Assembly: GCA_051885395.1 (NCBI GenBank)
Contig: JBJEXB010000102.1
Coordinates: 1 to 29,370 of the forward strand
Origin: Candidatus Enterousia sp.
GTDB lineage: Bacteria; Pseudomonadota; Alphaproteobacteria; Rs-D84
Direction: 5' to 3'
DNA length: 29,370 bases
The notes beneath the pieces were generated by a model. It was not told the origin of the DNA, searched no databases, and saw only the letters and a list, made by a program, of their open reading frames with translations. This document shows positions 7,567 through 24,769 of this stretch, piece by piece (within the stretch, counting starts at the first letter, position 1; every line of letters starts with the position of its first letter). The translations under genes and the position numbers were made by a program.

Positions 7567-7651
7567 GGCCCCGTGGCGGAATTGGTAGACGCGCTTGACT
7601 CAAAATCAAGTTCTGCAAGGAGTGTCGGTTCGAGTCCGACCAGGGCCACCA
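7567..7651 (+). tRNA. tRNA-Leu(CAA)
   Basis: D-arm TGGCGGAATTGGTAGACGC, anticodon arm CTTGA-CTCAAAA-TCAAG, long variable arm, T-arm GTCGG-TTCGAGT-CCGAC, encoded CCA. Confidence 0.95.
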
Positions 7652-9963: not shown

Positions 9964-10554
9964 TCAACCACAAAAAAAATTGTTTATTGTGCTGGGACTT
10001 ACATTCAAAATACTGGCTATCTTGCGATTTGAAAAGCCCATATTACGTAAATCAAAAATCTTATTTGATAAGCCGTCTAGTTTATGTTTTTTATTTTTAC
10101 ACCCACGAATTCGCCCTAACCTTTCACCACGGCAACGTTTGATTGCCAGTGCCTCACGCGTGCGCTGCGATATTAAATCGCGTTCTATTTCCGCAGACAA
10201 TGCAAATGCGAACGCCAGAACTTTACTTTGAATATTATCCCCCAGTTCATAGCCATCTTTGACAGTATAAACCACCGCGCCAACATTCATACAATGTTCC
10301 AATATACGCATTATCATAAACAGTTTGCGTCCCAACCGCGATAATTCAGAACATATAATAATATCGCCTTTTTTTATTTTACGCAGTAATCCACCCAATG
10401 CACGCTTTTCAGGTGGCAATGTACCCGATATACCATCGTCATAAATGTATTTATCAACCGTCAACCCCATTTGCCCACACTTTGTAATAATACCCAGTTT
10501 TTGATTTTCACAATCTTGTTTGTCTGTTGACACACGAACATACGCATAAACCAT
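9964..10554 (-). CDS. serine recombinase (resolvase/invertase, Mpi-like) with a C-terminal HTH (196 aa)
   Basis: YAYVRVSTDKQ (catalytic Ser), ELSRLGR, AEIERDLISQRTREAL, HTH GFSNRKIASILNVSPSTI. Confidence 0.93.
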   Translation of the reverse strand: MVYAYVRVSTDKQDCENQKLGIITKCGQMGLTVDKYIYDDGISGTLPPEKRALGGLLRKIKKGDIIICSELSRLGRKLFMIMRILEHCMNVGAVVYTVKDGYELGDNIQSKVLAFAFALSAEIERDLISQRTREALAIKRCRGERLGRIRGCKNKKHKLDGLSNKIFDLRNMGFSNRKIASILNVSPSTINNFFCG

Positions 10555-10771
10555 CAGAAATCCTTTTTTTATTTATAGAAAAAACACCGCCAAAGACGGT
10601 GTATGAATTTATTTATCGAACCATTAATTTGTTCAATTTCTGCCCCAGATTATATCAAAAAAATTGGGTAAAAGCAATAGAATTTCTAAAAAATCGCTTG
10701 CATAATTTCAACCTTGGATAGAATTGTGCAATTAATTCTAGTCACCCATCAACGCGTGGGACAATGCAAAA

Positions 10772-11788
10772 ATGGCAAATGCAAGTCTGCAATCTGCGAA
10801 ACAGGTAAAAAATGATGAGTTTTACACTCAGTTTTCAGACATAAAAACAGAATGCGATAAATACGCACGCGCATTTCGGGGCAAGGTTATTTATTGCAAC
10901 TGTGATGACCATTATGGCATCAGCAAAGGCACACCAAAATCAAACTTTATAAAATATTTTGCTGATAATTTTCAAGCGTTCGGATTAAAACGCTTAATTG
11001 CCACCCATTACGAGAAAGACGGCAGTAATAGTTGTGCATATATCCTGGACCGCGATATCACAGGTGATGGCATTATATGTTTAGAAGATATAGAAGAAAT
11101 TCCGCTGCGTTGCGATGGCGATTTTCGCAGCGATGAATGTATTAAATTTCTGAAACAAGCAGATATTGTTATCACCAATCCGCCATTTTCATTATTCCGT
11201 GAATATGTTGCCCAATTGATAGAATATAATAAAAAATTTTTGATAATTGGAAATGATAATTGTCGCACATACAAAGAAATATTTCCACTGATACAAACCA
11301 ATAAAATGTGGTGCGGGTATGGTTCAGTAAAACAATTTGCAAAACCAAACGGCGAAACACAAAGTTTTGGGAATGTTTCATGGTATACCAATCTGCCGAA
11401 CGCACGCAGAAATGAATGGCTAAATACGGGGGCGGAATACACAGGGCACGAATCCGAATATCCGAAATACGATAACTATGATGCCATAGAAGTCAGCAAA
11501 GTTTCACATATTCCAATGGACTATGATGGGGTAATGGGCGTTCCAATTACATTTCTGGACAAACACAATCCCGAACAATTTGAAATTGTCGGAATGTGCG
11601 AGAACGAAGACCTGTATAAATTGAAAATAAAAAAATACTCTGCCGAAGAATGCAAAAATGCATATCGTATCCTGTTCAAAAAAAATGGGGTTTATGACTT
11701 AAATGCAGCAGGCGTCTTAAATCGTGATGGAATTTATAAAAAAGTTTATCAACGTATTCTTATACGCAAAAAAAAGGCAAATAAATGA
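10772..11788 (+). CDS. EcoRI-family adenine-specific DNA methyltransferase (338 aa)
   Basis: KNDEFYTQ start, VIYCNCDD, GDFRSDEC, catalytic ITNPPFSLF, MGVPITFLDK. Confidence 0.9.
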   Translation: MANASLQSAKQVKNDEFYTQFSDIKTECDKYARAFRGKVIYCNCDDHYGISKGTPKSNFIKYFADNFQAFGLKRLIATHYEKDGSNSCAYILDRDITGDGIICLEDIEEIPLRCDGDFRSDECIKFLKQADIVITNPPFSLFREYVAQLIEYNKKFLIIGNDNCRTYKEIFPLIQTNKMWCGYGSVKQFAKPNGETQSFGNVSWYTNLPNARRNEWLNTGAEYTGHESEYPKYDNYDAIEVSKVSHIPMDYDGVMGVPITFLDKHNPEQFEIVGMCENEDLYKLKIKKYSAEECKNAYRILFKKNGVYDLNAAGVLNRDGIYKKVYQRILIRKKKANK

Positions 11789-13077
11789 CAATGAAAGTAA
11801 TCGACCCAAAAGATGAATTTGGTAAAGACTTTATTACCATTGCCGATATTGTTAATGGGTATTGTGATAATCACGAAGGGGGTGTCACTGGTTTTGCTGG
11901 GCGACTGAACATTCGACCCGCATATCAACGCGAATTTATATACGATTCTGCAAAACGCGAAAAAGTTATTCATAGTATTTATAACGGATTACCACTAAAC
12001 TTTATTTACTGGGCAAAAAATCCAGATGGCACATACGAAGTTATTGATGGTCAGCAACGCTTAATATCTATCTGTCAATTTGCAACAAATGATGATGGCT
12101 TTGGCAATCCAATCGCAATTATGTTTAACGGGAAAAATACAGATACCATTGAATCTTTACGCGATTTTTCACCTGATAAATATGATTATATTATGCACAA
12201 ATATAAATTACAAATTTGTATTTGCGAAGGAACCGACGATGAAAAACTGGACTGGTTTAACACAATTAATATCGCGGGTATTCCAATGACACCCCAAGAA
12301 TTGTTAAATGCAAACTTTACAGGTCCATGGTTAAATCACGCAAAAGAACTGTTCAGCAAATCACAAAATAATTTGGCACTGAATGAATCATATCACGGTA
12401 ACGGCGCGGCAGACTCTGATAAGCCATTAGTTATCCCCAGTACCAATGGCGATAAATTTAGCCCAAAGCGGGTTGAACGCCAAGCATTACTGGAACTGGC
12501 GCTATCGTGGATTGTAAATTCAGATGAACGTGGCAACGAACGTGTCACAGACAATGAAATCAACCGCATAATAAACCCAAAGATAAAAGAATATATGGCT
12601 ATTAATCGCACAAAACCAAACGCTAACGAATTATGGAATTATTACAAGGCTGTTTTAGATTGGGTCAAAGCACGATTTCCAGAATACTATGAAGAAATGC
12701 GCGGCATTGATTGGGGAACACTGTATGCAAAATACAAGCATGATGCAACAGATTACAGTGCACGTGTCGCACAACTGATGGCGGATAGCGAAGTTAAATC
12801 TAAACGCGGAATCTTTGAATTTGTTTTTGACGAAGAAAACAATTTTCCAAAACTGTCACTGCGTGATTTTGATGACGCAACAAAACGCACACAATATCAA
12901 AAACAAGGCGGTATTTGCCCATACTGTAAAAACACATCAAATGAAAATAAAATTTGGAAATTATCAGAAATGGACGCAGACCATATCATTGCGTGGCGCA
13001 ATGGTGGCAAAACAGAGCCAGCGAACTGTCAAATGCTGTGCCGACACCATAACCACGAAAAAGGTAACCGCTGGTAA
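11785..13077 (+). CDS. DUF262 (GmrSD-type) plus HNH endonuclease fusion (430 aa)
   Basis: RPAYQREFIY, VIDGQQRL, FNTIN; C-terminal CPYC...DADHIIAWRNGGKT..NCQMLCRHHN; ATGA overlap with the methyltransferase. Confidence 0.88.
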   Translation: MTMKVIDPKDEFGKDFITIADIVNGYCDNHEGGVTGFAGRLNIRPAYQREFIYDSAKREKVIHSIYNGLPLNFIYWAKNPDGTYEVIDGQQRLISICQFATNDDGFGNPIAIMFNGKNTDTIESLRDFSPDKYDYIMHKYKLQICICEGTDDEKLDWFNTINIAGIPMTPQELLNANFTGPWLNHAKELFSKSQNNLALNESYHGNGAADSDKPLVIPSTNGDKFSPKRVERQALLELALSWIVNSDERGNERVTDNEINRIINPKIKEYMAINRTKPNANELWNYYKAVLDWVKARFPEYYEEMRGIDWGTLYAKYKHDATDYSARVAQLMADSEVKSKRGIFEFVFDEENNFPKLSLRDFDDATKRTQYQKQGGICPYCKNTSNENKIWKLSEMDADHIIAWRNGGKTEPANCQMLCRHHNHEKGNRW

Positions 13078-13584: not shown

Positions 13585-13613
13585 AAAAAAATGCTCCATT
13601 CGGAGCATTTTTT
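13585..13613 (-). terminator. terminator of mscS
   Basis: AAAAAAATGCTCC-ATTC-GGAGCATTTTTT abutting the stop codon. Confidence 0.75.
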
Positions 13614-14460
13614 ATTTGATAACATGCACATCCATTTGTGGAAATGGGAAGTTTAATTTCTTCTTTGGTAATGTTTCATAAATCTTTTCGCGAATATCTG
13701 CCGCCGCAGGATACATATCAGCGTATGACGTCCAAAAACGAACAGTCAAAACAACCGCACTGTCTGCCAAATCCGACACAAAAACAGTTGGAACGGCTGG
13801 CTTATTCAAAACACGCGAATCCGCAGCCAATATATCCATAATTACAGAACGCGCTTTTTCAACATTGTCACCGTATGAAATACCAATGGTTAAATCTGTA
13901 CGACGATTTCCACCACGCGACATATTTGTAATTACACCATTTGATAAATTTGAATTTGGCACAATAACAACCTGGTTATCAAAAGTTTGAATTTCTGTTG
14001 TAAAAATCATAATTCTTTTTACGACACCCGTTTGACCACTGGGACTAATAATCGTATCACCAACCTTGAATGGCTTAAAGAACAGTATCACCAACCCACC
14101 TGCAACATTTTGCATTGTCCCAGATAGAGCCATACCAACAGCCAATGCCGCTGCACCTAATGCCGCAGTAATTGCCGTCATCTGGACACCAACCGTGGTC
14201 AGAACGATAACAAAAACAAATACTTTTGATATTATGCTGACAAATGAAGCCAAGAACGACTGCAATGATGGTTCCAGTTTACGACGTTCCATTCCACGCT
14301 TTACAATCTTGGTCAAACGTGCCGACAGCCATAATCCAATAGATAATATTACCAATGCAATCATTATCTTTAAACTGAACCGCAATGCGCCTTCTATAAA
14401 TTGGCGTAACAGGTCATGGAAATTAATATTTACTAATGGTGATGATGTATCTGGCGTCAT
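13612..14460 (-). CDS. mscS: small-conductance mechanosensitive channel (282 aa)
   Basis: three TM helices, ALGAAALAVGMALSGTMQNVAGG, FKPFKVGDTI, IVPNSNL, RRTDLTIGISYGD, FPFPQMDVH. Confidence 0.9.
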   Translation of the reverse strand: MTPDTSSPLVNINFHDLLRQFIEGALRFSLKIMIALVILSIGLWLSARLTKIVKRGMERRKLEPSLQSFLASFVSIISKVFVFVIVLTTVGVQMTAITAALGAAALAVGMALSGTMQNVAGGLVILFFKPFKVGDTIISPSGQTGVVKRIMIFTTEIQTFDNQVVIVPNSNLSNGVITNMSRGGNRRTDLTIGISYGDNVEKARSVIMDILAADSRVLNKPAVPTVFVSDLADSAVVLTVRFWTSYADMYPAAADIREKIYETLPKKKLNFPFPQMDVHVIK

Positions 14461-14530: not shown

Positions 14531-16990
14531 TTACATTATAATGTCTTCGCAATCAGGTCCCTTGGTCGAAACATCGCAACTTTGCTTTTTGCCAATTCCC
14601 AAGAATCCACCTTTCTTGGTACAACTCTGCGTTGTTATCGTTGTGCACACGTGACAATTACGAGTTTCGCGGCTGAACAATGCAGATACAGTTTTTGTAA
14701 CACCACTGCCCGCAGTTGTTGTATATTGCGATTCCATATTCGCCGCCTGTTTCATTAGATCTGAATTCGCCATACCTGCGCTGACATCATAACTGATTGC
14801 ATAGGGGGCGGTCAATGGCGTATCCACAGATGCTGTGCCAACACCTGCACTGCCACCATTTTGCGCAATCTTTTGGCACATATATTGTGCCAGGTCTGCT
14901 GATGCATTTTTGGTTGCATCGGCTATTTCTTTGTTCAGTTTTGCATTATAGTTATCTTGTGCTTTACGCAATGCAGAAACTGCAATTTGCATTTTGACCT
15001 GGGTCAACAAATTCGGGAATCGACCTGTGGTTTTATCATTCGCCTTGCCTGTTATTTGTGACAGGTTACGTCCATTAACACAGTATTGAATTTCTGGGTC
15101 TTGTTCAATCATTTCAATTGTACGATTGATTGTACCAGCGATATTGTTCAATTCTTCCTCAATAGACGATATTATACCCGCCGCATTATCAACAGATGCA
15201 TTACGTGCGCGCACGTGACTCAGATATTCTTGAACGCCGATTTCACCAGGGCCAAGTTTTGTATCACCATCATCGCCAATATCCTTGGTACGTCCTGTCG
15301 CGTCACCCATTTTAATACTGCCAAATGAAATCATACCTGTAACGCGATATACATCGCCATCTTTCTGGGAACGCAGCGAACCCGTACCCATCGTATCATC
15401 TGCGGCAAATTTATTACAATCGGTGGTACTGCCACAGACTTCTTCCATTTTGGCATCAACAATGTTTTGGCATTGTTCCAAGGCAGCATTATCAATATTC
15501 AGATAAAGCCCCATTAACATAGAATCCAAATCATCCATTGAAAATGCAGGATTATTAGCCTTGCACACGACCAATTTATCCAGCGGGCAAATATCGTGGA
15601 TGTAGTCGTAATCCATACCTAAGCAATTTTCAAAATTCGGACCACAGCGGTCTTCTGCGGTAAAGCACTCTTTGACCTCTTGCGTACAGGCATCAACACG
15701 CATTGCCGCCAATTTGTCTTTGACATATCCCCAGATTAACGGTTCCATACGTTCACATGGGTCGATTTCAATTTTACAGAAAGAACGCACCATATCCGGA
15801 CGTGATAAACACGCATCCATAGTATCAACACCCTTGCCAACGATATCATCTTTACACGCTGTCTGAACACATTGTGAAATATTGGTCAAACATGACTGAC
15901 GGAACTTTGATTCTGCCTGATTTTCCGCCAATCGAATTGTTGGGGCGGCTTCTCTTAAAAATGCAGGCCACACATTATCACGCACCACAACGCATTGACT
16001 TAAAACGTTTTCACAGATAAAACGTTTTGATTCCAATATTTCCATCGTAGATGCAGTAATATCGTATGTATTAACCGTTGCGATCTGGGTTCCTGCGGTT
16101 GATTTTGCCTTGTTATTCTGCATATTTTCAGACGCAATTGTAAATACGCAATTTTCCCAGTTTTTACCACACGCATCATCTGTCTGCATACACTTTTTAA
16201 ATTCCACCATACATTGACCCAAGTCATATTTATTTGCAGAATCAAAACTTTCTTTTAATGCGGTACGCACTTCGCCCTGGGCAGATGCCAATTCAATTTC
16301 TGCCTCAGACTTTTTCGTAGCCAAACTGTTTTTAAAACCTTCACAATCTGAAACGATTTGACGCGCATACAATTGATGTAAAAAGTTCGTATCCTTTTCA
16401 CATTTAGCGGGGATTTGATTTAAACAAACATTCTCGGCGGCGGCAAATAATGCAGACCCTGTTTTGGACGAAATATCTTCGACTGTTTCCTCGTCCTCAT
16501 CGTCATACAGATTATTTTCAAACAACGCCATTAAATCAGCACGTTTTTTTTGTTTGGTTTCCGCTTCGGACAATTCATCAACATCTAATAAATTACCATT
16601 TTCGTCATAACGACGTTCGCCAGTAAATATGATATCGGCTTGGGCACCAGCCTTGACCTTTTCAACCTCGATAGTACGAATACGTTCTGCCTCGGTTAAA
16701 ATATCTTGGATCTCTGAAAACTGTTTTTCATACTTTGCACTGTCATCACTGCACGCACAACTGCCACCATTCGTATTATCAGCAATACAAAATTGGTCCA
16801 AACATCCAAAATACGCATCATAGCATTCTTGGTCATACAATCCTGTTGCTGTAACCTTGGTACGAACAAAAGTCCCCTTTTGAATAGCAGATTGCTTTCC
16901 AGTATTTTTTGCCGTTACCGCATGACACTGCGGGGCAATAAAAGTCCCCGCAATTATCATAGCAATACCAACAAATATATTTCGTTTCAT
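14531..16990 (-). CDS. large secreted Cys-rich protein, paralogue A (819 aa)
   Basis: signal-like MKRNIFVGIAMIIAG...CHA (start 16990, GGGGA upstream); 36 Cys after the signal; shared N-terminal Cys motif. Confidence 0.85.
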   Translation of the reverse strand: MKRNIFVGIAMIIAGTFIAPQCHAVTAKNTGKQSAIQKGTFVRTKVTATGLYDQECYDAYFGCLDQFCIADNTNGGSCACSDDSAKYEKQFSEIQDILTEAERIRTIEVEKVKAGAQADIIFTGERRYDENGNLLDVDELSEAETKQKKRADLMALFENNLYDDEDEETVEDISSKTGSALFAAAENVCLNQIPAKCEKDTNFLHQLYARQIVSDCEGFKNSLATKKSEAEIELASAQGEVRTALKESFDSANKYDLGQCMVEFKKCMQTDDACGKNWENCVFTIASENMQNNKAKSTAGTQIATVNTYDITASTMEILESKRFICENVLSQCVVVRDNVWPAFLREAAPTIRLAENQAESKFRQSCLTNISQCVQTACKDDIVGKGVDTMDACLSRPDMVRSFCKIEIDPCERMEPLIWGYVKDKLAAMRVDACTQEVKECFTAEDRCGPNFENCLGMDYDYIHDICPLDKLVVCKANNPAFSMDDLDSMLMGLYLNIDNAALEQCQNIVDAKMEEVCGSTTDCNKFAADDTMGTGSLRSQKDGDVYRVTGMISFGSIKMGDATGRTKDIGDDGDTKLGPGEIGVQEYLSHVRARNASVDNAAGIISSIEEELNNIAGTINRTIEMIEQDPEIQYCVNGRNLSQITGKANDKTTGRFPNLLTQVKMQIAVSALRKAQDNYNAKLNKEIADATKNASADLAQYMCQKIAQNGGSAGVGTASVDTPLTAPYAISYDVSAGMANSDLMKQAANMESQYTTTAGSGVTKTVSALFSRETRNCHVCTTITTQSCTKKGGFLGIGKKQSCDVSTKGPDCEDIIM

Positions 16991-17026
16991 ATCATGTATC
17001 CCCAAAGTAAAATCCGCCATATTAAA

Positions 17027-19258
17027 TTACATATTTACGTCTTCACAGGATTCGATTTCCTGGCAATATGTTTCTTTGCCAGAGGCAAACATTCCAGCCA
17101 AACCACCACCAATTAAACCAACCGCACCACCAATTGCAGTTCCCCACCCTGGTGTTACCATTGTTCCAGCAGATGCACCTGCCGCCATTCCACCAGCAGC
17201 ACCTTTGGCAAATCCTGCTCCCTTGGACTCCCCTCCTGTTTCACAAACCTGTTGCATACGGCATACGTGACAGTTACGTAAATCAGGTTCAAATGACACA
17301 CTGCGGATATATGTATAATTTTCTTTGCCTTTTTCTTCGAATTCGGATGGGTCCTGAACCTTGTACGTATTCAGACAGTTTTGACGTGCCTGTTCAATAT
17401 CCTGCTTACGTGACAGTTCTGCAATCTTGGATTCCAATTCACGCATCGCACGATTTTCTGCACCAATTTCCGCAATTATTTTGGCTGTATTGAAAACGGT
17501 TGAGCCTAAACTTGCACGCTTTACACCCTTGGTTGTTGTAGGTTGCTGACTGTCCATACATGCGGCGACAGTAATATCTTTTTCAAACTGTTTCATGAAC
17601 TGTGCAACAGCGGTTTTCGAATTCGCGCGAACTGTTTCACGCAGCGACATTAACCCAGCCTCAGAATCAGGCAATTCAACCAATGACGTAATCTGTGGAT
17701 CCGTTGTCAAGCAAGACATATCTGTACCACACGTACGTCCCAATTGTTCGCTGAAATAGTTCAAACATCCTTGCAACATCTGATAATCCATTTGCAATAA
17801 CGCCGCCTGGACAATAATGTTGTATTGGTTTTCACCCTTGCATGATGGGAACATGCTTTGTGGGCACATTGCAACAATTTCAGATGTCTTTTTGCCAACA
17901 CATTCTGGTGCGGTATAATCCGCGCCACATTTATCCTGCAAGCATTTATCAACGTCGTTTTGACAGAACTGCAAGCGCAGATATCCCAATTTGTCATTCA
18001 CAACAGATTTGATTCCAGGAATTATTGCATTACATTCATCAATAATTGGGCAAACACCTGCTGCAACATTAACGTCGGTCAAGCACGCAGAATTTGTACT
18101 GGTGCTGCAACCTTCTTCCAAACAGTTTTGAATCTGCGCCAAACATGTCTGACGTTTATATTTATCTGCATACTTTGCAGCGTCAACCAAGATAGCCTCT
18201 GATTCCGCTTCCCAGTCTTTTAATACATAAGATTTGCTGGCAGTACATTGATCCAAAATATTTTCACATGCATTTGCACGACGTCCCAGCAAGTCCGCAT
18301 CCAGACAGTTTTCAAAGTTTGTTCCACAACCGCCCTTGTCTGCAATACAAGCCTTATATGCCAGCAAGCATTCACCACGGTTATATTTATTTGTGGTATC
18401 AAACATTTCCAGACGCGCTTTGCGAACGGCCGCTTCTGCGGTGCGTTTATTCGCCTCTGCATTACGTTTCTGGTCTGCCAGATATGTTTCAAACCCCTTG
18501 CAGTCTTGGACAACCTGGCGTGAATACAGCATTTCTTCCATTTCTGCCCGCGCACCACATGATTCCAATGCATACGCGCAATATTCAGATGCCATTGAAT
18601 ACAAACCATCGCCAATATCCGAATCACTGCCCAATGAATCTTCGGTTTCTACATCACCACTTTTCAACCATTCTGAAAAACTAAGCCCTGATGCACGTGA
18701 ACTTTTCTTTGCACGTTCACTTTCACCAAATACATATGCAGCCTTGGCCCCAAGTTGTTCGCGTTCAACACCTTCGGTATATAACTTATCGGCTTCTTCT
18801 TGGATTTTTTGAATTTCTTGGATTAATGACTTTGACCTATTTATATTTGAACTGCATGCGCAACGATACCCTTCGGATTCATCCAGCAAGCAAAATTCAT
18901 CCATACACTGACGATATACATCACGACACGAACCTGATGTTCCACCGCCATTATTACCGCCGTTATCACCACTGCCTGAATTTCCACCAGCGTTGCCACC
19001 GCCATTATCGCCGCCAGAGTTATTTCCGCCACCGTTGTTACCATCAGTATTGTCGCCGTTATTGCCACCATTTGATGTATTGGCATTCCCTGCCACATTA
19101 TTTGTACCGCTGACATTGACCGTCATTGTTGGCGAATGCAATCCTGCCATTGATAATCGCGATACACTGACACGTGCATCTGACGAACGTGGTGTCGCCG
19201 CTACCGCAGCACCCGATGGCACCAATGCTACCAAAGCAACTAATAGTCTAAAATTCAT
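17027..19258 (-). CDS. large secreted Cys-rich protein, paralogue B, with Gly/Asn linker and C-terminal glycine zipper (743 aa)
   Basis: signal [20 protein letters not shown]; 36 Cys; GN-rich segment; GxxxG-rich hydrophobic tip. Confidence 0.85.
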
Positions 19259-19329
19259 ATTTATCCACCCTACATTATTACCTGTATTTTATCAAATGAT
19301 GACCTGTGGCACAAGCAAATAAAAAAATC

Positions 19330-19358
19330 TTGCAATTTTTCAGTTGACCAAATATCAT
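19330..19358 (+). promoter_or_regulatory. sigma70-type promoter of infA
   Basis: TTGCAA, 17 nt, TATCAT. Confidence 0.5.
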
Positions 19359-19396
19359 TACCGACAGCAAATACAGATTTATCAAAGGAAATATTT

Positions 19397-19645
19397 ATGG
19401 CAAAAGATGATGTAATTGTGTTTTCTGGCACGGTCGAAGACAAATTACCAAACACTATGTTCAAGGTTAAACTTGAAAACGGGCATGAAATTCTGGCAAC
19501 TGTCTGTGGCAAAATGCGCAAGGCACGCATCTGGGTAAACGTTGGCGAACGTGTACGTGTTGAAATGACACCTTATGACTTGGACAAAGGTCGCATAACA
19601 TTCGTTGAACGCAACCGCCCCGCCCCAGCAACACCAAACAATTAA
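19397..19645 (+). CDS. infA: translation initiation factor IF-1 (82 aa)
   Basis: [34 protein letters not shown]...[28 protein letters not shown]. Confidence 0.96.
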
Positions 19646-19649
19646 TCAG

Positions 19650-19669
19650 AACGCCCAAACGGGCGTTTT
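19650..19669 (+). terminator. terminator of infA
   Basis: AACGCCC-AAAC-GGGCGTTTT. Confidence 0.75.
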
Positions 19670-19705
19670 ATTTTGTCGTTTATTGGCTGTTTTTTTAAAT
19701 AACCC

Positions 19706-19735
19706 TTGCCCCGATTTGCAATTATTTGCTATCAT
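19706..19735 (+). promoter_or_regulatory. promoter of Cys-rich paralogue C
   Basis: TTGCCC, 18 nt, TGcTATCAT (extended -10). Confidence 0.45.
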
Positions 19736-19749
19736 ATATAGGTACAAGG

Positions 19750-22380
19750 ATGAAAAAGTTTTGGCTGTTTATCGCTGCATGTTCCACTGGGATTGGTGTT
19801 GCCAATGCCACTGTTCGTGATGCATCAAACGTTACACGTTCCACCACATCTGCGAAAACAGTATATGTTCGCCCACAAAGCGCTACTACATCAGGCAGAA
19901 CGAATAACACAACAGTTAATCGCACAAGTGCGCGCAGTACAACGACAGCCCGCACCGCAACAGCACCCGCCAACCGCGTATCCAGCACAGTATCACGCAG
20001 TGCGACACAACCAAAAACTATACGTACGGCGACCACGAACGCCACACAAAAAAATATCATATCTGTATCACGCAGTGCGACAACACAGGCAAAAACCGCA
20101 CGCAGTGCAACGAACGCCAGCGCAACAAATACTTTTGGCACAGGTTATAACACATGTCGCGACGCGTACTTTACATGCATGGATCAATTTTGTGCCAAAC
20201 AAAACGAATCGTATCGTCGGTGCGTATGTTCATCGCGCCTGACAGAAATTAAGTCACGTGAACGTGCATTGGGTGTTGCCGCCGACAGTTTGACATACTT
20301 TAAAAATCTGAACATTGACGTAATCCCCAAAACCGCAGCCGAGGTTAAGGCAATGCTAACCGCCACTGCGGGCGAAAATGCCACCACAACCAAGAAAGAT
20401 ACATCTGCTGCCGCTGCTCAATTGGAAGGCATCAGCGAAGTATTATCAAAAACAAAAAAATCAGCATTATCAACCCAAGGACAATTAGATATCGCAGGCG
20501 ACATAAACGCGATATGGTCAACAACCGACCTGGCGGGTGGTGCAAATATCGCCAACCTGACTGGCGAAGCATTATATAACGCAGTCCATGCCCAGTGTGC
20601 AGAAATAATGTCAAGTTACTGTCCAACAACTGCAACGCAAAACATGGTAATATCTGCATACGGCATGTATATCGAAAATGATTGCAGTGCATTAATTAAC
20701 AGTCTGGACAAAAAATTATTATCAGCAAATTCAACAATACGTGACACAGAACGCGAAATGCAGGTTGCACGTCTGGAAAACTATAATGCACATAACGCCG
20801 CGTCTATTAACGACTGTATCGCCAGTGTCCGCAGTGACATTACTGCCGATACGGCATGTGGTACAGATTTTGTTCATTGCTTGGATGTCAGTGGCCGATA
20901 CCTGAACCGTGATACAGGTGAACCAATATATACACCTGACTTTTATCAATTGGAAAGCCAGGTTTCATTGTCTGGCGATGTTCTGAACAACCAGGCCAAC
21001 CGTATGATTGTTGCCGAATTAAAGAACAAACGTAAATATGCAGAAAACAGTTTAAAAACATGCACAGATTTGGCAGATGATGTATGGGACGAATTCATGC
21101 GCCAGGCAATTCGCGAAATATACCAAGGACAGCAAGAACGCATTCGCCAGGTCAAAGATGAATGCTTGGACGTGGTAAATAAATGCTATGATGAACAAAG
21201 CAAATCACTGAAAGATTTTAGTAACGTCAAAGAACAATTATTACTAGGTCAGCGTTTAGAATTATCCGAAGAAATGTGCCGTGATAAATTAAGTGCGTGC
21301 AGCAATCTGTACGGCAGTATGGATTTGTTAGTAACCGCAATGCATAATATAACAAACCAAAAGATTGCAAAAGAATGTCGCATAACATTACAAGAATATG
21401 CTGCTGATTTATGTGCCATCCCCAGCAACGATACATTGCACGCATATCCATTTTCATGTCGCACATACGCACCTGGTGAACAGCAACACGCAAAAAAGGC
21501 GACATGTAACGCCCAGCTAAGCAGCAGCACATCTGATGATGGCCCTGCCATCAAAAAGGCCCCACTAAGTCGTGCTGCTGGCGAAAACTCTGTCGGATAT
21601 GTCTGTGACAGCATCAAAAAGTACGATTCGTGCAATCCAGGATATTTTATGTCATTAGATGGCGTAATTTGTAATTCATCACCACAGGTAGGCAATATGT
21701 GTGCCCCATGCACAGATGGACAAACATGTCCTGGTGGCACCACATGTCCTGGTACCGCTGGGGAAATTATGACAGCTGAATGTGGGGATTACAATGGCAG
21801 CCTGTATCAAAAACTGGTACGGTATGCATTAAATGCGTGTGTCCGCCCATCAGAAGCCGATACAATGATACCACCAACCACAGTCTTAGAAGATGTAAAC
21901 GTTGTCATGGATAAAATACGTGTCGATATGGCAAAGGCATTATCAAAAGAATGTGAACGCTTGGATGGTGTATGGGTATCAACCGAATGGAAAGACACAG
22001 AAACAGAAGGTGTTGCTAACGGTGGACCTGACGGCAAACACGATACAACAGGAAACAAAAAGTATCGCAAGTTCTATGATGAAACTGGTGCAAATGATAA
22101 ATGGGGATTCTGTGCTGAATCAGGTTCTGGCAGTGATTCAGGATCAAACAATCAATCTGGGGGTGGTGGGAATGCCAATAATGCAGATTTACAGGCAGCT
22201 ATAAACAAATGCCCTGGTCTGTGGATGAACTTTCAATTCCGCGATGCAAATAATAACGGTTATGATGATACCGACGAAAAATACGCAATTGACAACCAAT
22301 TCTATAAAGACAACCCAAACATCGACAAATATTGGGACAAAGGTTGGTGTTCTACCTATAAAATACCTACAAATGAATAA
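19750..22380 (+). CDS. large secreted Cys-rich protein, paralogue C (876 aa)
   Basis: signal MKKFWLFIAACSTGIGVANA (start 19750); Thr/Ser/Arg-rich linker; shared Cys motif; mosaic C-terminus. Confidence 0.85.
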   Translation: MKKFWLFIAACSTGIGVANATVRDASNVTRSTTSAKTVYVRPQSATTSGRTNNTTVNRTSARSTTTARTATAPANRVSSTVSRSATQPKTIRTATTNATQKNIISVSRSATTQAKTARSATNASATNTFGTGYNTCRDAYFTCMDQFCAKQNESYRRCVCSSRLTEIKSRERALGVAADSLTYFKNLNIDVIPKTAAEVKAMLTATAGENATTTKKDTSAAAAQLEGISEVLSKTKKSALSTQGQLDIAGDINAIWSTTDLAGGANIANLTGEALYNAVHAQCAEIMSSYCPTTATQNMVISAYGMYIENDCSALINSLDKKLLSANSTIRDTEREMQVARLENYNAHNAASINDCIASVRSDITADTACGTDFVHCLDVSGRYLNRDTGEPIYTPDFYQLESQVSLSGDVLNNQANRMIVAELKNKRKYAENSLKTCTDLADDVWDEFMRQAIREIYQGQQERIRQVKDECLDVVNKCYDEQSKSLKDFSNVKEQLLLGQRLELSEEMCRDKLSACSNLYGSMDLLVTAMHNITNQKIAKECRITLQEYAADLCAIPSNDTLHAYPFSCRTYAPGEQQHAKKATCNAQLSSSTSDDGPAIKKAPLSRAAGENSVGYVCDSIKKYDSCNPGYFMSLDGVICNSSPQVGNMCAPCTDGQTCPGGTTCPGTAGEIMTAECGDYNGSLYQKLVRYALNACVRPSEADTMIPPTTVLEDVNVVMDKIRVDMAKALSKECERLDGVWVSTEWKDTETEGVANGGPDGKHDTTGNKKYRKFYDETGANDKWGFCAESGSGSDSGSNNQSGGGGNANNADLQAAINKCPGLWMNFQFRDANNNGYDDTDEKYAIDNQFYKDNPNIDKYWDKGWCSTYKIPTNE
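19990..20082 (+). repeat. 18-bp intragenic direct repeat GTATCACGCAGTGCGACA (VSRSAT), two copies
   Basis: exact copies at 19990-20007 and 20065-20082; degenerate third copy (ARSAT) near 20098. Confidence 0.75.
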
Positions 22381-22447
22381 TTAAATAAAACAAGACAATT
22401 GCACCAGAGGCAAAAAACTGATAATATAAATTATACGAGAAAAAATT

Positions 22448-23152
22448 ATGAGAAAAATACTTTATGTTTCTTTATTATCTATAATAACGCTGACAACCAA
22501 CGCAGCAACAACTCCATGGTGGAAGCAACCGACAATTTGTCGTTTGGACCCAACGAATTGTTATCCTGCAATGGGTGCTGGATTTGATTCTGGAATGTGG
22601 GATGCCACAGCAAACTGCTGGGGATTAAAACTGATTTGTCCACACGCAATGAAAACCCAACATAATGACCCAGTTCCTGTCGGTCGTGCTGACATTGCCA
22701 GTGGCAGAAACATAAATGCTGATTTTGATATTTCATTATTAAATGGCGATTGTTTTGGTGTACGAAAAACGACTGCAAATGGAACCAAGGCATCTGTTAA
22801 CGGCACATACGTAAACGTATGGTGCAATGGTATTCTGGATAATCCAGACGAACAGGTTGCATCCGGCGAAATTACATTTGGCACACAACCATCATGTGCG
22901 CGCCTGGCGGCAGATGGATATGTTGCAGTGGAAAATAACCGTTGCTATGGTAAACATTTTAATGATTCTGAATACTTCATTGAATGTACTGGTTCTGATA
23001 TATTGCCCAGTCGTCTGATTGTATTAAATGGTGCAGACTATAATACAGGTGGCGCAAATGTGCCTGCGGATGAATCTGCTGCTGATGCGATATTTGACCA
23101 AATGTATCAAACATCGCAACTACAATATAAAAAGTATTTCAAAGACGAATAA
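22448..23152 (+). CDS. secreted Cys-rich hypothetical protein (234 aa)
   Basis: signal MRKILYVSLLSIITLTTNA; multiple Cys; follows paralogue C without an intervening terminator. Confidence 0.8.
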   Translation: MRKILYVSLLSIITLTTNAATTPWWKQPTICRLDPTNCYPAMGAGFDSGMWDATANCWGLKLICPHAMKTQHNDPVPVGRADIASGRNINADFDISLLNGDCFGVRKTTANGTKASVNGTYVNVWCNGILDNPDEQVASGEITFGTQPSCARLAADGYVAVENNRCYGKHFNDSEYFIECTGSDILPSRLIVLNGADYNTGGANVPADESAADAIFDQMYQTSQLQYKKYFKDE

Positions 23153-23182
23153 AAAAACGGGGAAATCCCCCGTTTTTTTTTT
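23151..23182 (+). terminator. terminator after the 234-aa gene
   Basis: AAAAAAACGGGG-AAATC-CCCCGTTTTTTTTTTT. Confidence 0.8.
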
Positions 23183-23877: not shown

Positions 23878-23947
23878 TATATTTATTCCTTGCGCTTTTT
23901 CAAGATTGTGTGCTATGGTATTCTCGTTCAACAGAAAGGAGAAAACT

Positions 23948-24769
23948 ATGACTTGGACAATCTTAGTTCTGGTTGTTGGTATTATCTTGTTTATGTTCGG
24001 TGGCATGTTGTTCCGAACAGACAGCAAAAAACCATCAACAGGTATCATCTTGGGTAAAAAAGCAATCAAATTAGTTTCTGTATTGCTGATTGCAGGCAGT
24101 GTTTGCCGTCTGTATATGCCAGTTTATTTGCTGGATGTAAACCCTGCGATTCTGCAAGAAATGGTTACAAAAATGCAGGAACAGCAGAACGCTGAAAAGA
24201 ACAAAGAAATCAAAAAATTTGTACGTTCAAACAGCGACACAATGATTGCAGATGCCCCAGTATTGGGTAACCCAGAAGCAAAGAAAACCATATTCGTATG
24301 GACAGATTTCTCTTGCCCATATTGCCGTCGTGTACATGGCGAATTGGACCGTGTGTTGAAAAACCGTAATGACGTCCGCGTTGTTATTAAAAACTTCTCT
24401 ATCCACGGGGCATTGTCTGATGCACCAGCAAAAGCCGTTATCGCTGCAAAATTGCAGAACCCAGAAAAAGCGGCACAATTGGTTGAAATGTTGATGACAC
24501 GTGAATACTATTCATCCGAAGACATGCAGGACCAGTCAAAATTGGCATCCAAGGTTGAAGCAAATGTTATGAAATTTGCAACCGAAGCAGGTTTGGATAC
24601 AGCCCAGTTGAAAAACGATATGAACGGCGAAGTCGTTGCACGTGAATTGTCAAACGTACGTGACATAGCCCAGCGTTTTGAAATCAACGGTACACCATTC
24701 TTGATTATCGGTGAACAGGCATTCCCAGGTGCAATTCCATATGACCAGATTAATTCTGCATTGGATTAA
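23948..24769 (+). CDS. membrane-anchored DsbA/ScsC-like thiol-disulfide oxidoreductase (273 aa)
   Basis: DFSCPYCRR active site, cis-Pro loop INGTPF, NPAILQEM helix, N-terminal hydrophobic segments; SD AAGGAG places the start at 23948. Confidence 0.88.
   Translation: MTWTILVLVVGIILFMFGGMLFRTDSKKPSTGIILGKKAIKLVSVLLIAGSVCRLYMPVYLLDVNPAILQEMVTKMQEQQNAEKNKEIKKFVRSNSDTMIADAPVLGNPEAKKTIFVWTDFSCPYCRRVHGELDRVLKNRNDVRVVIKNFSIHGALSDAPAKAVIAAKLQNPEKAAQLVEMLMTREYYSSEDMQDQSKLASKVEANVMKFATEAGLDTAQLKNDMNGEVVARELSNVRDIAQRFEINGTPFLIIGEQAFPGAIPYDQINSALD

Follow-up and report, generated by a model that had tools for sequence, protein, structure and literature searches.

The Omc proteins of Chlamydia (OmcB and OmcA, which with MOMP make up the cysteine-rich outer-membrane complex) are Sec-exported, cysteine-rich envelope proteins that are thought to stiffen the envelope through disulfides, with a large and a small partner encoded together. 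The twin Cx9C (CHCH) proteins of the mitochondrial intermembrane space carry cysteines at regular intervals along their helices, so that disulfide pairs staple neighbouring helices. The alpha-pore-forming toxins YaxAB/XaxAB, AhlABC/SmhABC, Hbl and Nhe use side-by-side paralogous, elongated helical proteins that differ in the size of their hydrophobic head or tip. Here we describe four genes, A to D, for exported cysteine-rich proteins that share traits with each of these groups. They lie on a 29,370-nucleotide stretch of bacterial chromosome (GC ~40%; 'the window' hereafter means this whole stretch) from Candidatus Enterousia sp., an alphaproteobacterium of the order Rs-D84 (assembly GCA_051885395.1, contig JBJEXB010000102.1, positions 1 to 29,370, forward strand). 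Our searches support A, B and C as members of a previously undescribed family without a known relative or fold. We propose, with moderate confidence, that A–D and the other family members form a disulfide-braced, membrane-tethered envelope or surface structure.

The chlamydial complex may offer the closest analogy, in role only. As in Chlamydia, the proteins are exported, contain ~4–5% cysteine, occur in a small-genome, host-dependent diderm and comprise large proteins co-encoded with a small one. Unlike the chlamydial proteins, they have a predicted helical fold, 10–14 paralogues and no known developmental cycle, and neither Omc family (Chlam_OMP6 and Chlam_OMP3) was matched by A–D in Pfam at E values up to 1. 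Omc proteins form an insoluble complex in the outer membrane through disulfides between molecules; here, the even cysteine counts of A and B suggest mainly intramolecular pairs, whereas the counts of C and D are odd. The likeness to CHCH proteins lies in the fixed helical cysteine spacing, here C-x6-C on long predicted helices, but spacing, compartment and oxidase all differ, the proteins described here are 20-fold larger and there is no Pfam match. With the alpha-pore-forming toxins they share the arrangement of co-encoded paralogous helical proteins that differ in hydrophobic head or tip size; those toxins, however, are half the size, have no disulfide stapling and carry a beta-tongue within the helical head, in place of the C-terminal beta module found here. 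The ClyA-superfamily fold was found neither in Pfam nor among Foldseek matches to the PDB at E below 0.001, and it was absent from the top 50 of VIA-align.

A locus of exported cysteine-rich paralogues

The four genes form two pairs on opposite strands. On the reverse strand, B (17027–19258; 743 amino acids, 36 cysteines, a G/N-rich linker after the signal peptide) lies 36 nucleotides upstream of the conserved start of A. The open reading frame (ORF) of A spans 14531–17020 (829 amino acids), or 14531–16990 (819 amino acids, 36 mature cysteines) from the conserved start M11. On the forward strand, C (ORF 19726–22380, 884 amino acids; 19750–22380, 876 amino acids from the conserved start M9; 33 mature cysteines) is followed 67 nucleotides downstream by D (22448–23152), a small exported protein of 234 amino acids with nine invariant cysteines. 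The starts of A and C were placed where conservation among orthologues begins.

A sequence-only reading of the window had described a leftward two-gene operon and a rightward C–D pair. Its gene order and strands stand, but it overlooked a gene between B and C: positions 19397–19645 on the forward strand, taken for a divergent promoter region, encode translation initiation factor IF-1 (infA, 82 amino acids; Pfam eIF-1a, E = 3.1e-23). This gene is not a member of the cysteine-rich family and also adjoins C in five other genomes. With infA and a terminator-like hairpin that follows it (19648–19669, forward strand) interposed between B and C, the rightward unit would be infA, then C–D. A promoter-like site precedes C (19706–19735, forward strand); like the hairpin, it comes from a consensus scan only. 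At the end of D, a palindromic GC hairpin with T and A runs (23151–23179) is terminator-like in both directions.

A, B and C each begin with what looks like a typical Sec signal peptide, as the earlier reading held: a single hydrophobic stretch at the N terminus that has a basic n-region and closes on an A-x-A-like sequence. D, too, starts with a signal peptide of the Sec type. A further hydrophobic segment occurs only in B (residues 706–727), as the sole hydrophobic 19-mer besides the signal peptides. The mature proteins are acidic (isoelectric points of 4.7–5.5) and contain 3.9–5.0% cysteine. Sequence similarity far above chance indicates that A, B and C are true paralogues: BLASTP aligned A with B at 27% identity over 472 amino acids (E = 1e-51), A with C at 24% identity over 351 amino acids (E = 1e-21) and B with C at E = 4e-16.

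All three large proteins share a five-cysteine motif of 26 amino acids, C-x-D-[AV]-Y-x2-C-[ML]-D-[QE]-F-C-x9-C-x-C-S, in which the cysteines follow the pattern C-x6-C-x4-C-x9-C-x-C. It starts at residue 66 in A (16748–16825, reverse strand), 111 in B (18851–18928, reverse strand) and 144 in C (20155–20232, forward strand), and the ORFs and motif positions agree exactly with those first reported. The motif is kept across an alignment of 150 family members, as are the further landmarks that had been pointed out downstream of it, all present in A, B and C: G188/L191, Y218...D225-C226 and C270...C284-G285...C291 are invariant or at least 90% conserved. A, B and C thus have all the defining features of the family, namely the signal peptide, the five-cysteine motif and the landmarks.

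Two subfamilies can be told apart. Members of the A/B type share a C-terminal module ending in C-E-D-[IV]-x-M. Members of the C type have a long S/T/R/A-rich linker after the signal peptide (~115 amino acids in C) and a different, variable C-terminal third. The linker of C (window positions 19750–20150, residues ~30–140) has many N-x-S/T sites, and the low-complexity linker of B covers residues ~45–108; neither sequence is conserved among orthologues.

No match to known domains or folds

Pfam and NCBIfam gave no match to A–D at E values up to 1 beyond chance level, and a sequence search of the PDB gave none. Fused known domains were absent from the 43 longest family members. With the AlphaFold2 model of A, Foldseek returned nothing from the PDB at E below 0.001; clusters of the AFDB yielded only an unnamed orthologue and one family member bearing an automatic name; and the ESM Atlas yielded nothing. 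A feature search of that atlas also produced no usable match. VIA-align of the same model against 48,161 chains reached a best Z of 7.4, to generic helical bundles and below a meaningful level for helical proteins. Matches to trypanosome and Borrelia surface-protein folds fell inside this helical-bundle noise and were rejected. The initial statement that no known domain could be recognised therefore extends to every one of these searches, none of which matched anything outside the family.

Trimeric autotransporter adhesins were also considered, but no YadA_anchor or stalk domain was found in Pfam. Their YadA-type anchor of four strands builds a 12-strand barrel, whereas the C-terminal strands here are polar, carry cysteines and occur in the A/B subfamily only.

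Even cysteine counts and probable pairwise disulfides

Across 79 orthologues of A, none of the 36 mature cysteines varies, and the same holds for the 36 of B in 76 orthologues. The count is even in 79 of 79 A sequences, 76 of 76 B sequences and most other subfamilies. In C, 29 core cysteines are conserved in 63 orthologues, and the total shifts between species in steps of two (27, 29, 31 ... 39). Of the 36 intervals that separate one cysteine from the next in A, 10 have the C-x6-C spacing (i, i+7). Even counts, two-step changes and C-x6-C spacing form the pattern expected from pairwise structural disulfides, and A–D are almost certainly disulfide-bonded, judging from these sequence patterns.

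Odd counts are found in C (60 of 63 orthologues) and in D (nine cysteines in 22 of 22). An intermolecular C–D bond was rejected as the sole cause, as five genomes without detectable D still have odd counts in C (25, 25, 29, 31 and 33). The odd cysteine of C could instead serve a C–C dimer, bond another partner or be a free thiol.

A large, lineage-specific family in gut bacteria

The assembly that contains the window comprises 951 kb in 109 contigs and is 95% complete; the sequencing runs that contain the exact DNA of the window are pig-gut samples. Close relatives of A come from metagenome-assembled genomes from chicken, deer, yak, sheep, goat, horse, rabbit and human guts, labelled Candidatus Enterousia or 'uncultured Alphaproteobacteria/Rickettsiales' and including one closed chromosome of 958,618 bp. 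Candidatus Enterousia and its relatives are widespread in the guts of chickens, pigs, ruminants, horses, rabbits and humans, have genomes of ~0.9 Mb and have never been cultured. According to the published description of the order Rs-D84, its genomes are smaller than 1 Mb, respiration and standard uptake systems are absent, glycolysis is incomplete and most biosynthesis is missing; a lifestyle that depends on a partner has been proposed (PMC12306168). The genome of the window fits this description.

A matches all 171 genomes of the bacterium's own family and, mostly weakly, 12 of the 29 genomes from other families of Rs-D84. It matches none of the 298 genomes of other Alphaproteobacteria, and the family profile finds nothing in the phylum sample's 399 other genomes. 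When 1.84 billion representatives were searched exhaustively with a profile, 983 clusters at 50% identity were returned, 604 of them with E below 1e-30. As far as searched, the family is confined to the order Rs-D84 and has no relatives outside it. It is universal in its lineage and as conserved as housekeeping envelope genes.

The cluster had been presented as a locus of three paralogues, a number that proved far too small. An iterated search of the same genome found 13 ORF pieces, several of them cut by contig ends, with a combined length of 24.6 kb (2.6% of the genome); in the closed 958-kb genome there are ~13–14 members. With about 10–14 members per ~0.95-Mb genome, the supposed locus of three is the best-conserved cluster of a large lineage-specific family. 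With ~3% of so small a genome devoted to it, the family probably plays a central part in holding these cells together or in living off others, and the structure, the location and the oxidant of A–D would each be informative on the envelope biology of reduced-genome symbionts.

Contigs from a pig-gut metatranscriptome cover parts of A, B and C at a depth similar to that of ClpX, DsbA and OmpA and not unusually high. As DNA carry-over is possible, this coverage is weak evidence of ordinary transcription.

Conserved synteny and purifying selection

Across relatives, virtually all of the 80 species loci with long enough flanks show the same arrangement, D←C(←infA) | B→A, as does another genus, and B lies directly upstream of A in 79 of the 80. 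D is a single-copy gene, present in 26 of 31 family genomes and always near the cluster. On the point of co-occurrence the first reading is supported: across ~80 species, all four genes are passed on together. In two species without detectable D, an ORF of 456–477 amino acids with only four cysteines lies downstream of C (locus L122, 38–1408, reverse strand, with a signal-peptide-like N terminus; locus L123, 3185–4618, forward strand).

Identity to the orthologue in a genome of the same genus (G077) and of another genus (G490) is 70% and 67% for A, 69% and 61% for B, 53% and 52% for C, and 57% and 56% for D. The OmpA-like protein of the same neighbourhood gives 69% and 65%, and ClpX and ClpP, which are not in the G077 locus, give 79% each in G490. 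Mean identity of 63 orthologues to the C protein of the window is 52%. Ratios of nonsynonymous to synonymous substitution rates (dN/dS), estimated against the nearest species at a dS of ~1.0–1.3, are 0.059 for A, 0.059 for B and 0.112 for C, beside 0.070 for the OmpA-like gene and 0.076 for MscS. A, B and C are therefore under strong purifying selection similar to that on neighbouring envelope genes, and C and D evolve about twice as fast as A and B. Low dN/dS and fixed conservation together point to core constrained parts and not to fast-evolving antigens.

Predicted structure and a disulfide-clamped loop

The AlphaFold2 model of A, built from an 80-row alignment, has a mean predicted local distance difference test score (pLDDT) of 81. 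It starts with a disordered signal peptide and linker (residues 1–48), followed by a long three-helix-bundle region (~58–305), a second cysteine-rich helical region (~318–545) and a third region that combines a small beta unit with a long helical hairpin and ends in a sheet of long strands (743–828). Helices span residues 64–720, and the long beta strands cover 774–783, 788–803 and 812–828. A is thus modelled as a rod of helices that ends in a beta module. The prediction for D was too poor for a fold search (mean pLDDT 54).

The C-terminal module of A (residues 789–829; 14534–14656, reverse strand) reads N-C-H-x-C ... C-(loop)-C ... C-E-D-I-x-M, and its five cysteines and terminal CEDIxM are conserved in 79 orthologues. 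Between the third and fourth module cysteines lies a disulfide-clamped loop (residues 801–814; 14579–14620, reverse strand) with a hydrophobic or aromatic tip and basic flanks. This loop is short and variable in sequence, yet its tip is always of the FLGI, NWF or SWF type beside K, R or N. At the equivalent loop position, B carries a glycine-zipper insert of ~50 amino acids (residues ~676–727; 17078–17233, reverse strand) that is G/A-rich, hydrophobic and highly conserved among orthologues. In its G/A-rich, hydrophobic make-up, and through weak, below-cut-off matches to their Pfam models, the insert recalls glycine-zipper outer-membrane lipoproteins such as SlyB/Pcp and the rickettsial 17-kDa antigen; unlike those lipoproteins, B has no lipobox, and its zipper interrupts a disulfide-clamped loop within a protein of 743 amino acids. 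The A/B loop is the one feature that points to a mechanism, suggesting from its sequence that the proteins associate with a membrane through it.

A DsbA homologue encoded in the window (23906–24769, forward strand; Pfam Thioredoxin_4 and DSBA) has a CPYC active site and two N-terminal hydrophobic segments, which mark it as membrane-anchored. The genome has no second DsbA-family gene, and this one is presumed to supply the oxidant for the cysteine-rich family. That a disulfide oxidoreductase lies two genes downstream had been offered as a functional clue. The gene is real, but its adjacency varies: the RecO–DsbA pair stands on the A side in some species and on the D side in others, and is often not within 6 kb; in most species DsbA either flanks the opposite end of the cluster or is missing from the 6-kb flank, so its position is a weak clue. 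The genome also encodes BamA, which implies an outer membrane.

A proposed envelope structure and its alternatives

In the structure that we favour, the proteins would be exported by Sec, after which the single membrane-anchored DsbA would oxidise them to ~18 disulfides each; the products would be stiff, acidic rods of three domains, helical for the most part. A and B, which would share one transcript, would be tethered to a membrane by their shared C-terminal beta module: B would insert its conserved glycine-zipper hairpin, and A would dip in its short tip, which is hydrophobic or aromatic and flanked by lysine. C and D may be the more outward-facing parts, given their roughly twofold faster evolution and the long disordered linker and variable C-terminal third of C. 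Together with the other ~7–11 paralogues, A–D would build a disulfide-braced envelope or surface layer for a partner-dependent cell in which most biosynthesis is missing.

Several observations weigh against this proposal. The envelope location is a prediction from sequence and could be periplasmic, outer-membrane-bound or exposed. A lipobox ([LVI][ASTVI][GAS]C) is absent from A, B and D, and the IAAC-like site of C is not counted as one, its cysteine being kept in only 41% of orthologues; A–D thus have no conserved lipobox, beta-barrel or known secretion signal that would account for passage across the outer membrane. The overall rod shape of A is uncertain at a predicted template modelling score of 0.47, and a complex prediction for A 320–829 with B 320–743 gave a median score of 0.00, which is evidence neither way. 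The glycine-zipper matches of B (residues 655–743) are weak and below the Pfam cut-offs: 16.6 bits against a cut-off of 25 for Gly-zipper_Omp (PF13488; E = 0.0076) and 16.0 bits against 28.9 for Gly-zipper_YMGG (PF13441; E = 0.0098). Finally, neither DsbB nor VKOR was detectable in five Enterousia genomes (G000, G077, G350, G490 and G499), three of them single-contig, and the lineage is reported to lack respiration, which leaves DsbA without a recognised route of re-oxidation in the anaerobic gut. Hundreds of apparently structural disulfides in an anaerobe with one DsbA and without DsbB, VKOR or a respiratory chain are a puzzle in their own right.

Of the competing explanations, the one that survives best, although we consider it unlikely, is an exposed contact or adhesion apparatus, in which the proteins would be surface rods and C, D and the variable paralogues would bind a bacterium, an archaeon, a protist or the host epithelium. 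This is in essence what the first reading inferred, with a hetero-oligomeric apparatus in mind. Such a role would suit a lineage that has no standard uptake systems, lacks most biosynthesis and has been proposed to depend on partners (PMC12306168), and it would agree with the share of a very small genome given to the family (~3%), with the acidity of all four mature proteins and with the long disordered linker and hypervariable C-terminal third of C. A and B, however, are near-invariant over long stretches, and their dN/dS is as low as that of housekeeping envelope genes. Such constraint accords better with a core structural component than with a contact protein that is exposed and evolves fast. 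Nor was a way through the outer membrane identified, and even the 43 longest members gave no known adhesin domain.

A more far-reaching version, which we regard as rather improbable, joins contact with membrane insertion in a cell-to-cell contact machine of a new kind. Disulfide-locked helical rods would stick out from the Enterousia cell and insert the zipper of B and the hydrophobic tip of A into the membrane of a partner cell, anchoring the bacterium or opening a conduit for metabolites that it is too poor in transporters to take up otherwise, with the oxidising power for ~230 disulfides per set drawn from a so far unrecognised route that does without DsbB.

Quite improbable, in our judgement, is a membrane-inserting or pore-forming set akin to the bipartite and tripartite alpha-pore-forming toxins, which would tap a partner cell and in which B would supply a large hydrophobic head, A a small membrane-dipping tip and C neither. 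The conserved 45–50-amino-acid glycine zipper of B and the lysine-flanked tip of A occupy the same disulfide-clamped loop, glycine zippers occur in channel-forming proteins and the lineage is poor in transporters, all of which would suit a pore. Glycine zippers also simply anchor outer-membrane lipoproteins, though, and neither sequence nor fold matches ClyA, Hbl, Nhe or Yax proteins. The proteins are, moreover, double the size of those toxins, and their disulfide locks would impede the extensive refolding that the toxins undergo.

That the cysteines form no disulfides at all, and act as metal ligands or as a thiol redox buffer in an anaerobic cell, is highly improbable. The missing DsbB and VKOR in the five genomes, the anaerobic gut and the lack of a respiratory chain would fit such a role. 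The cysteine arithmetic speaks against it, with even counts in every A and B orthologue and most subfamilies and changes by twos in C, as do the retention of a DsbA with a CPYC site and the lack of CxxC-rich metal-cluster patterns apart from one C-x2-C. We reject a set of variable surface antigens for immune or phage evasion, like the variant-specific surface proteins of Giardia or the variant surface glycoproteins of trypanosomes, as barely credible: a multi-gene, cysteine-rich family with signal peptides and a helical-bundle resemblance to trypanosome surface proteins (Z 5–7, within noise) speak for it, but conservation and selection contradict it, with one-to-one orthologues at fixed positions in ~80 species, dN/dS of 0.06–0.11, between-genera identity of 61–70% for A and B against 79% for ClpX and ClpP, and no switching elements seen at the locus.

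Neighbouring genes and other elements

A secretin gene with a TcpQ-like neighbour (locus L095, 13224–15813, contig C41 of genome G000) suggests a type IVb pilus or a related system, and a gene for a VirB4-like ATPase two ORFs from a phage-type integrase (locus L096, 410–2824 and 6626–7807, contig C82) suggests an integrative element. Neither the secretin nor the VirB4 gene adjoins any member of the cysteine-rich family.

Next to the cluster, the window holds a block of serine resolvase, EcoRI-type adenine methylase and GmrSD_N/HNH nuclease genes together with an MscS gene (9964–13077 and 13612–14460). Neither the block nor MscS is found in the stretch from A/BOF to OmpA in G077 and similar relatives; compared with many relatives, they look like insertions into a conserved neighbourhood. 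Just after rpmB, a tRNA-Leu (CAA) gene (7567–7651, forward strand) is the only Rfam or ARAGORN match in the window.

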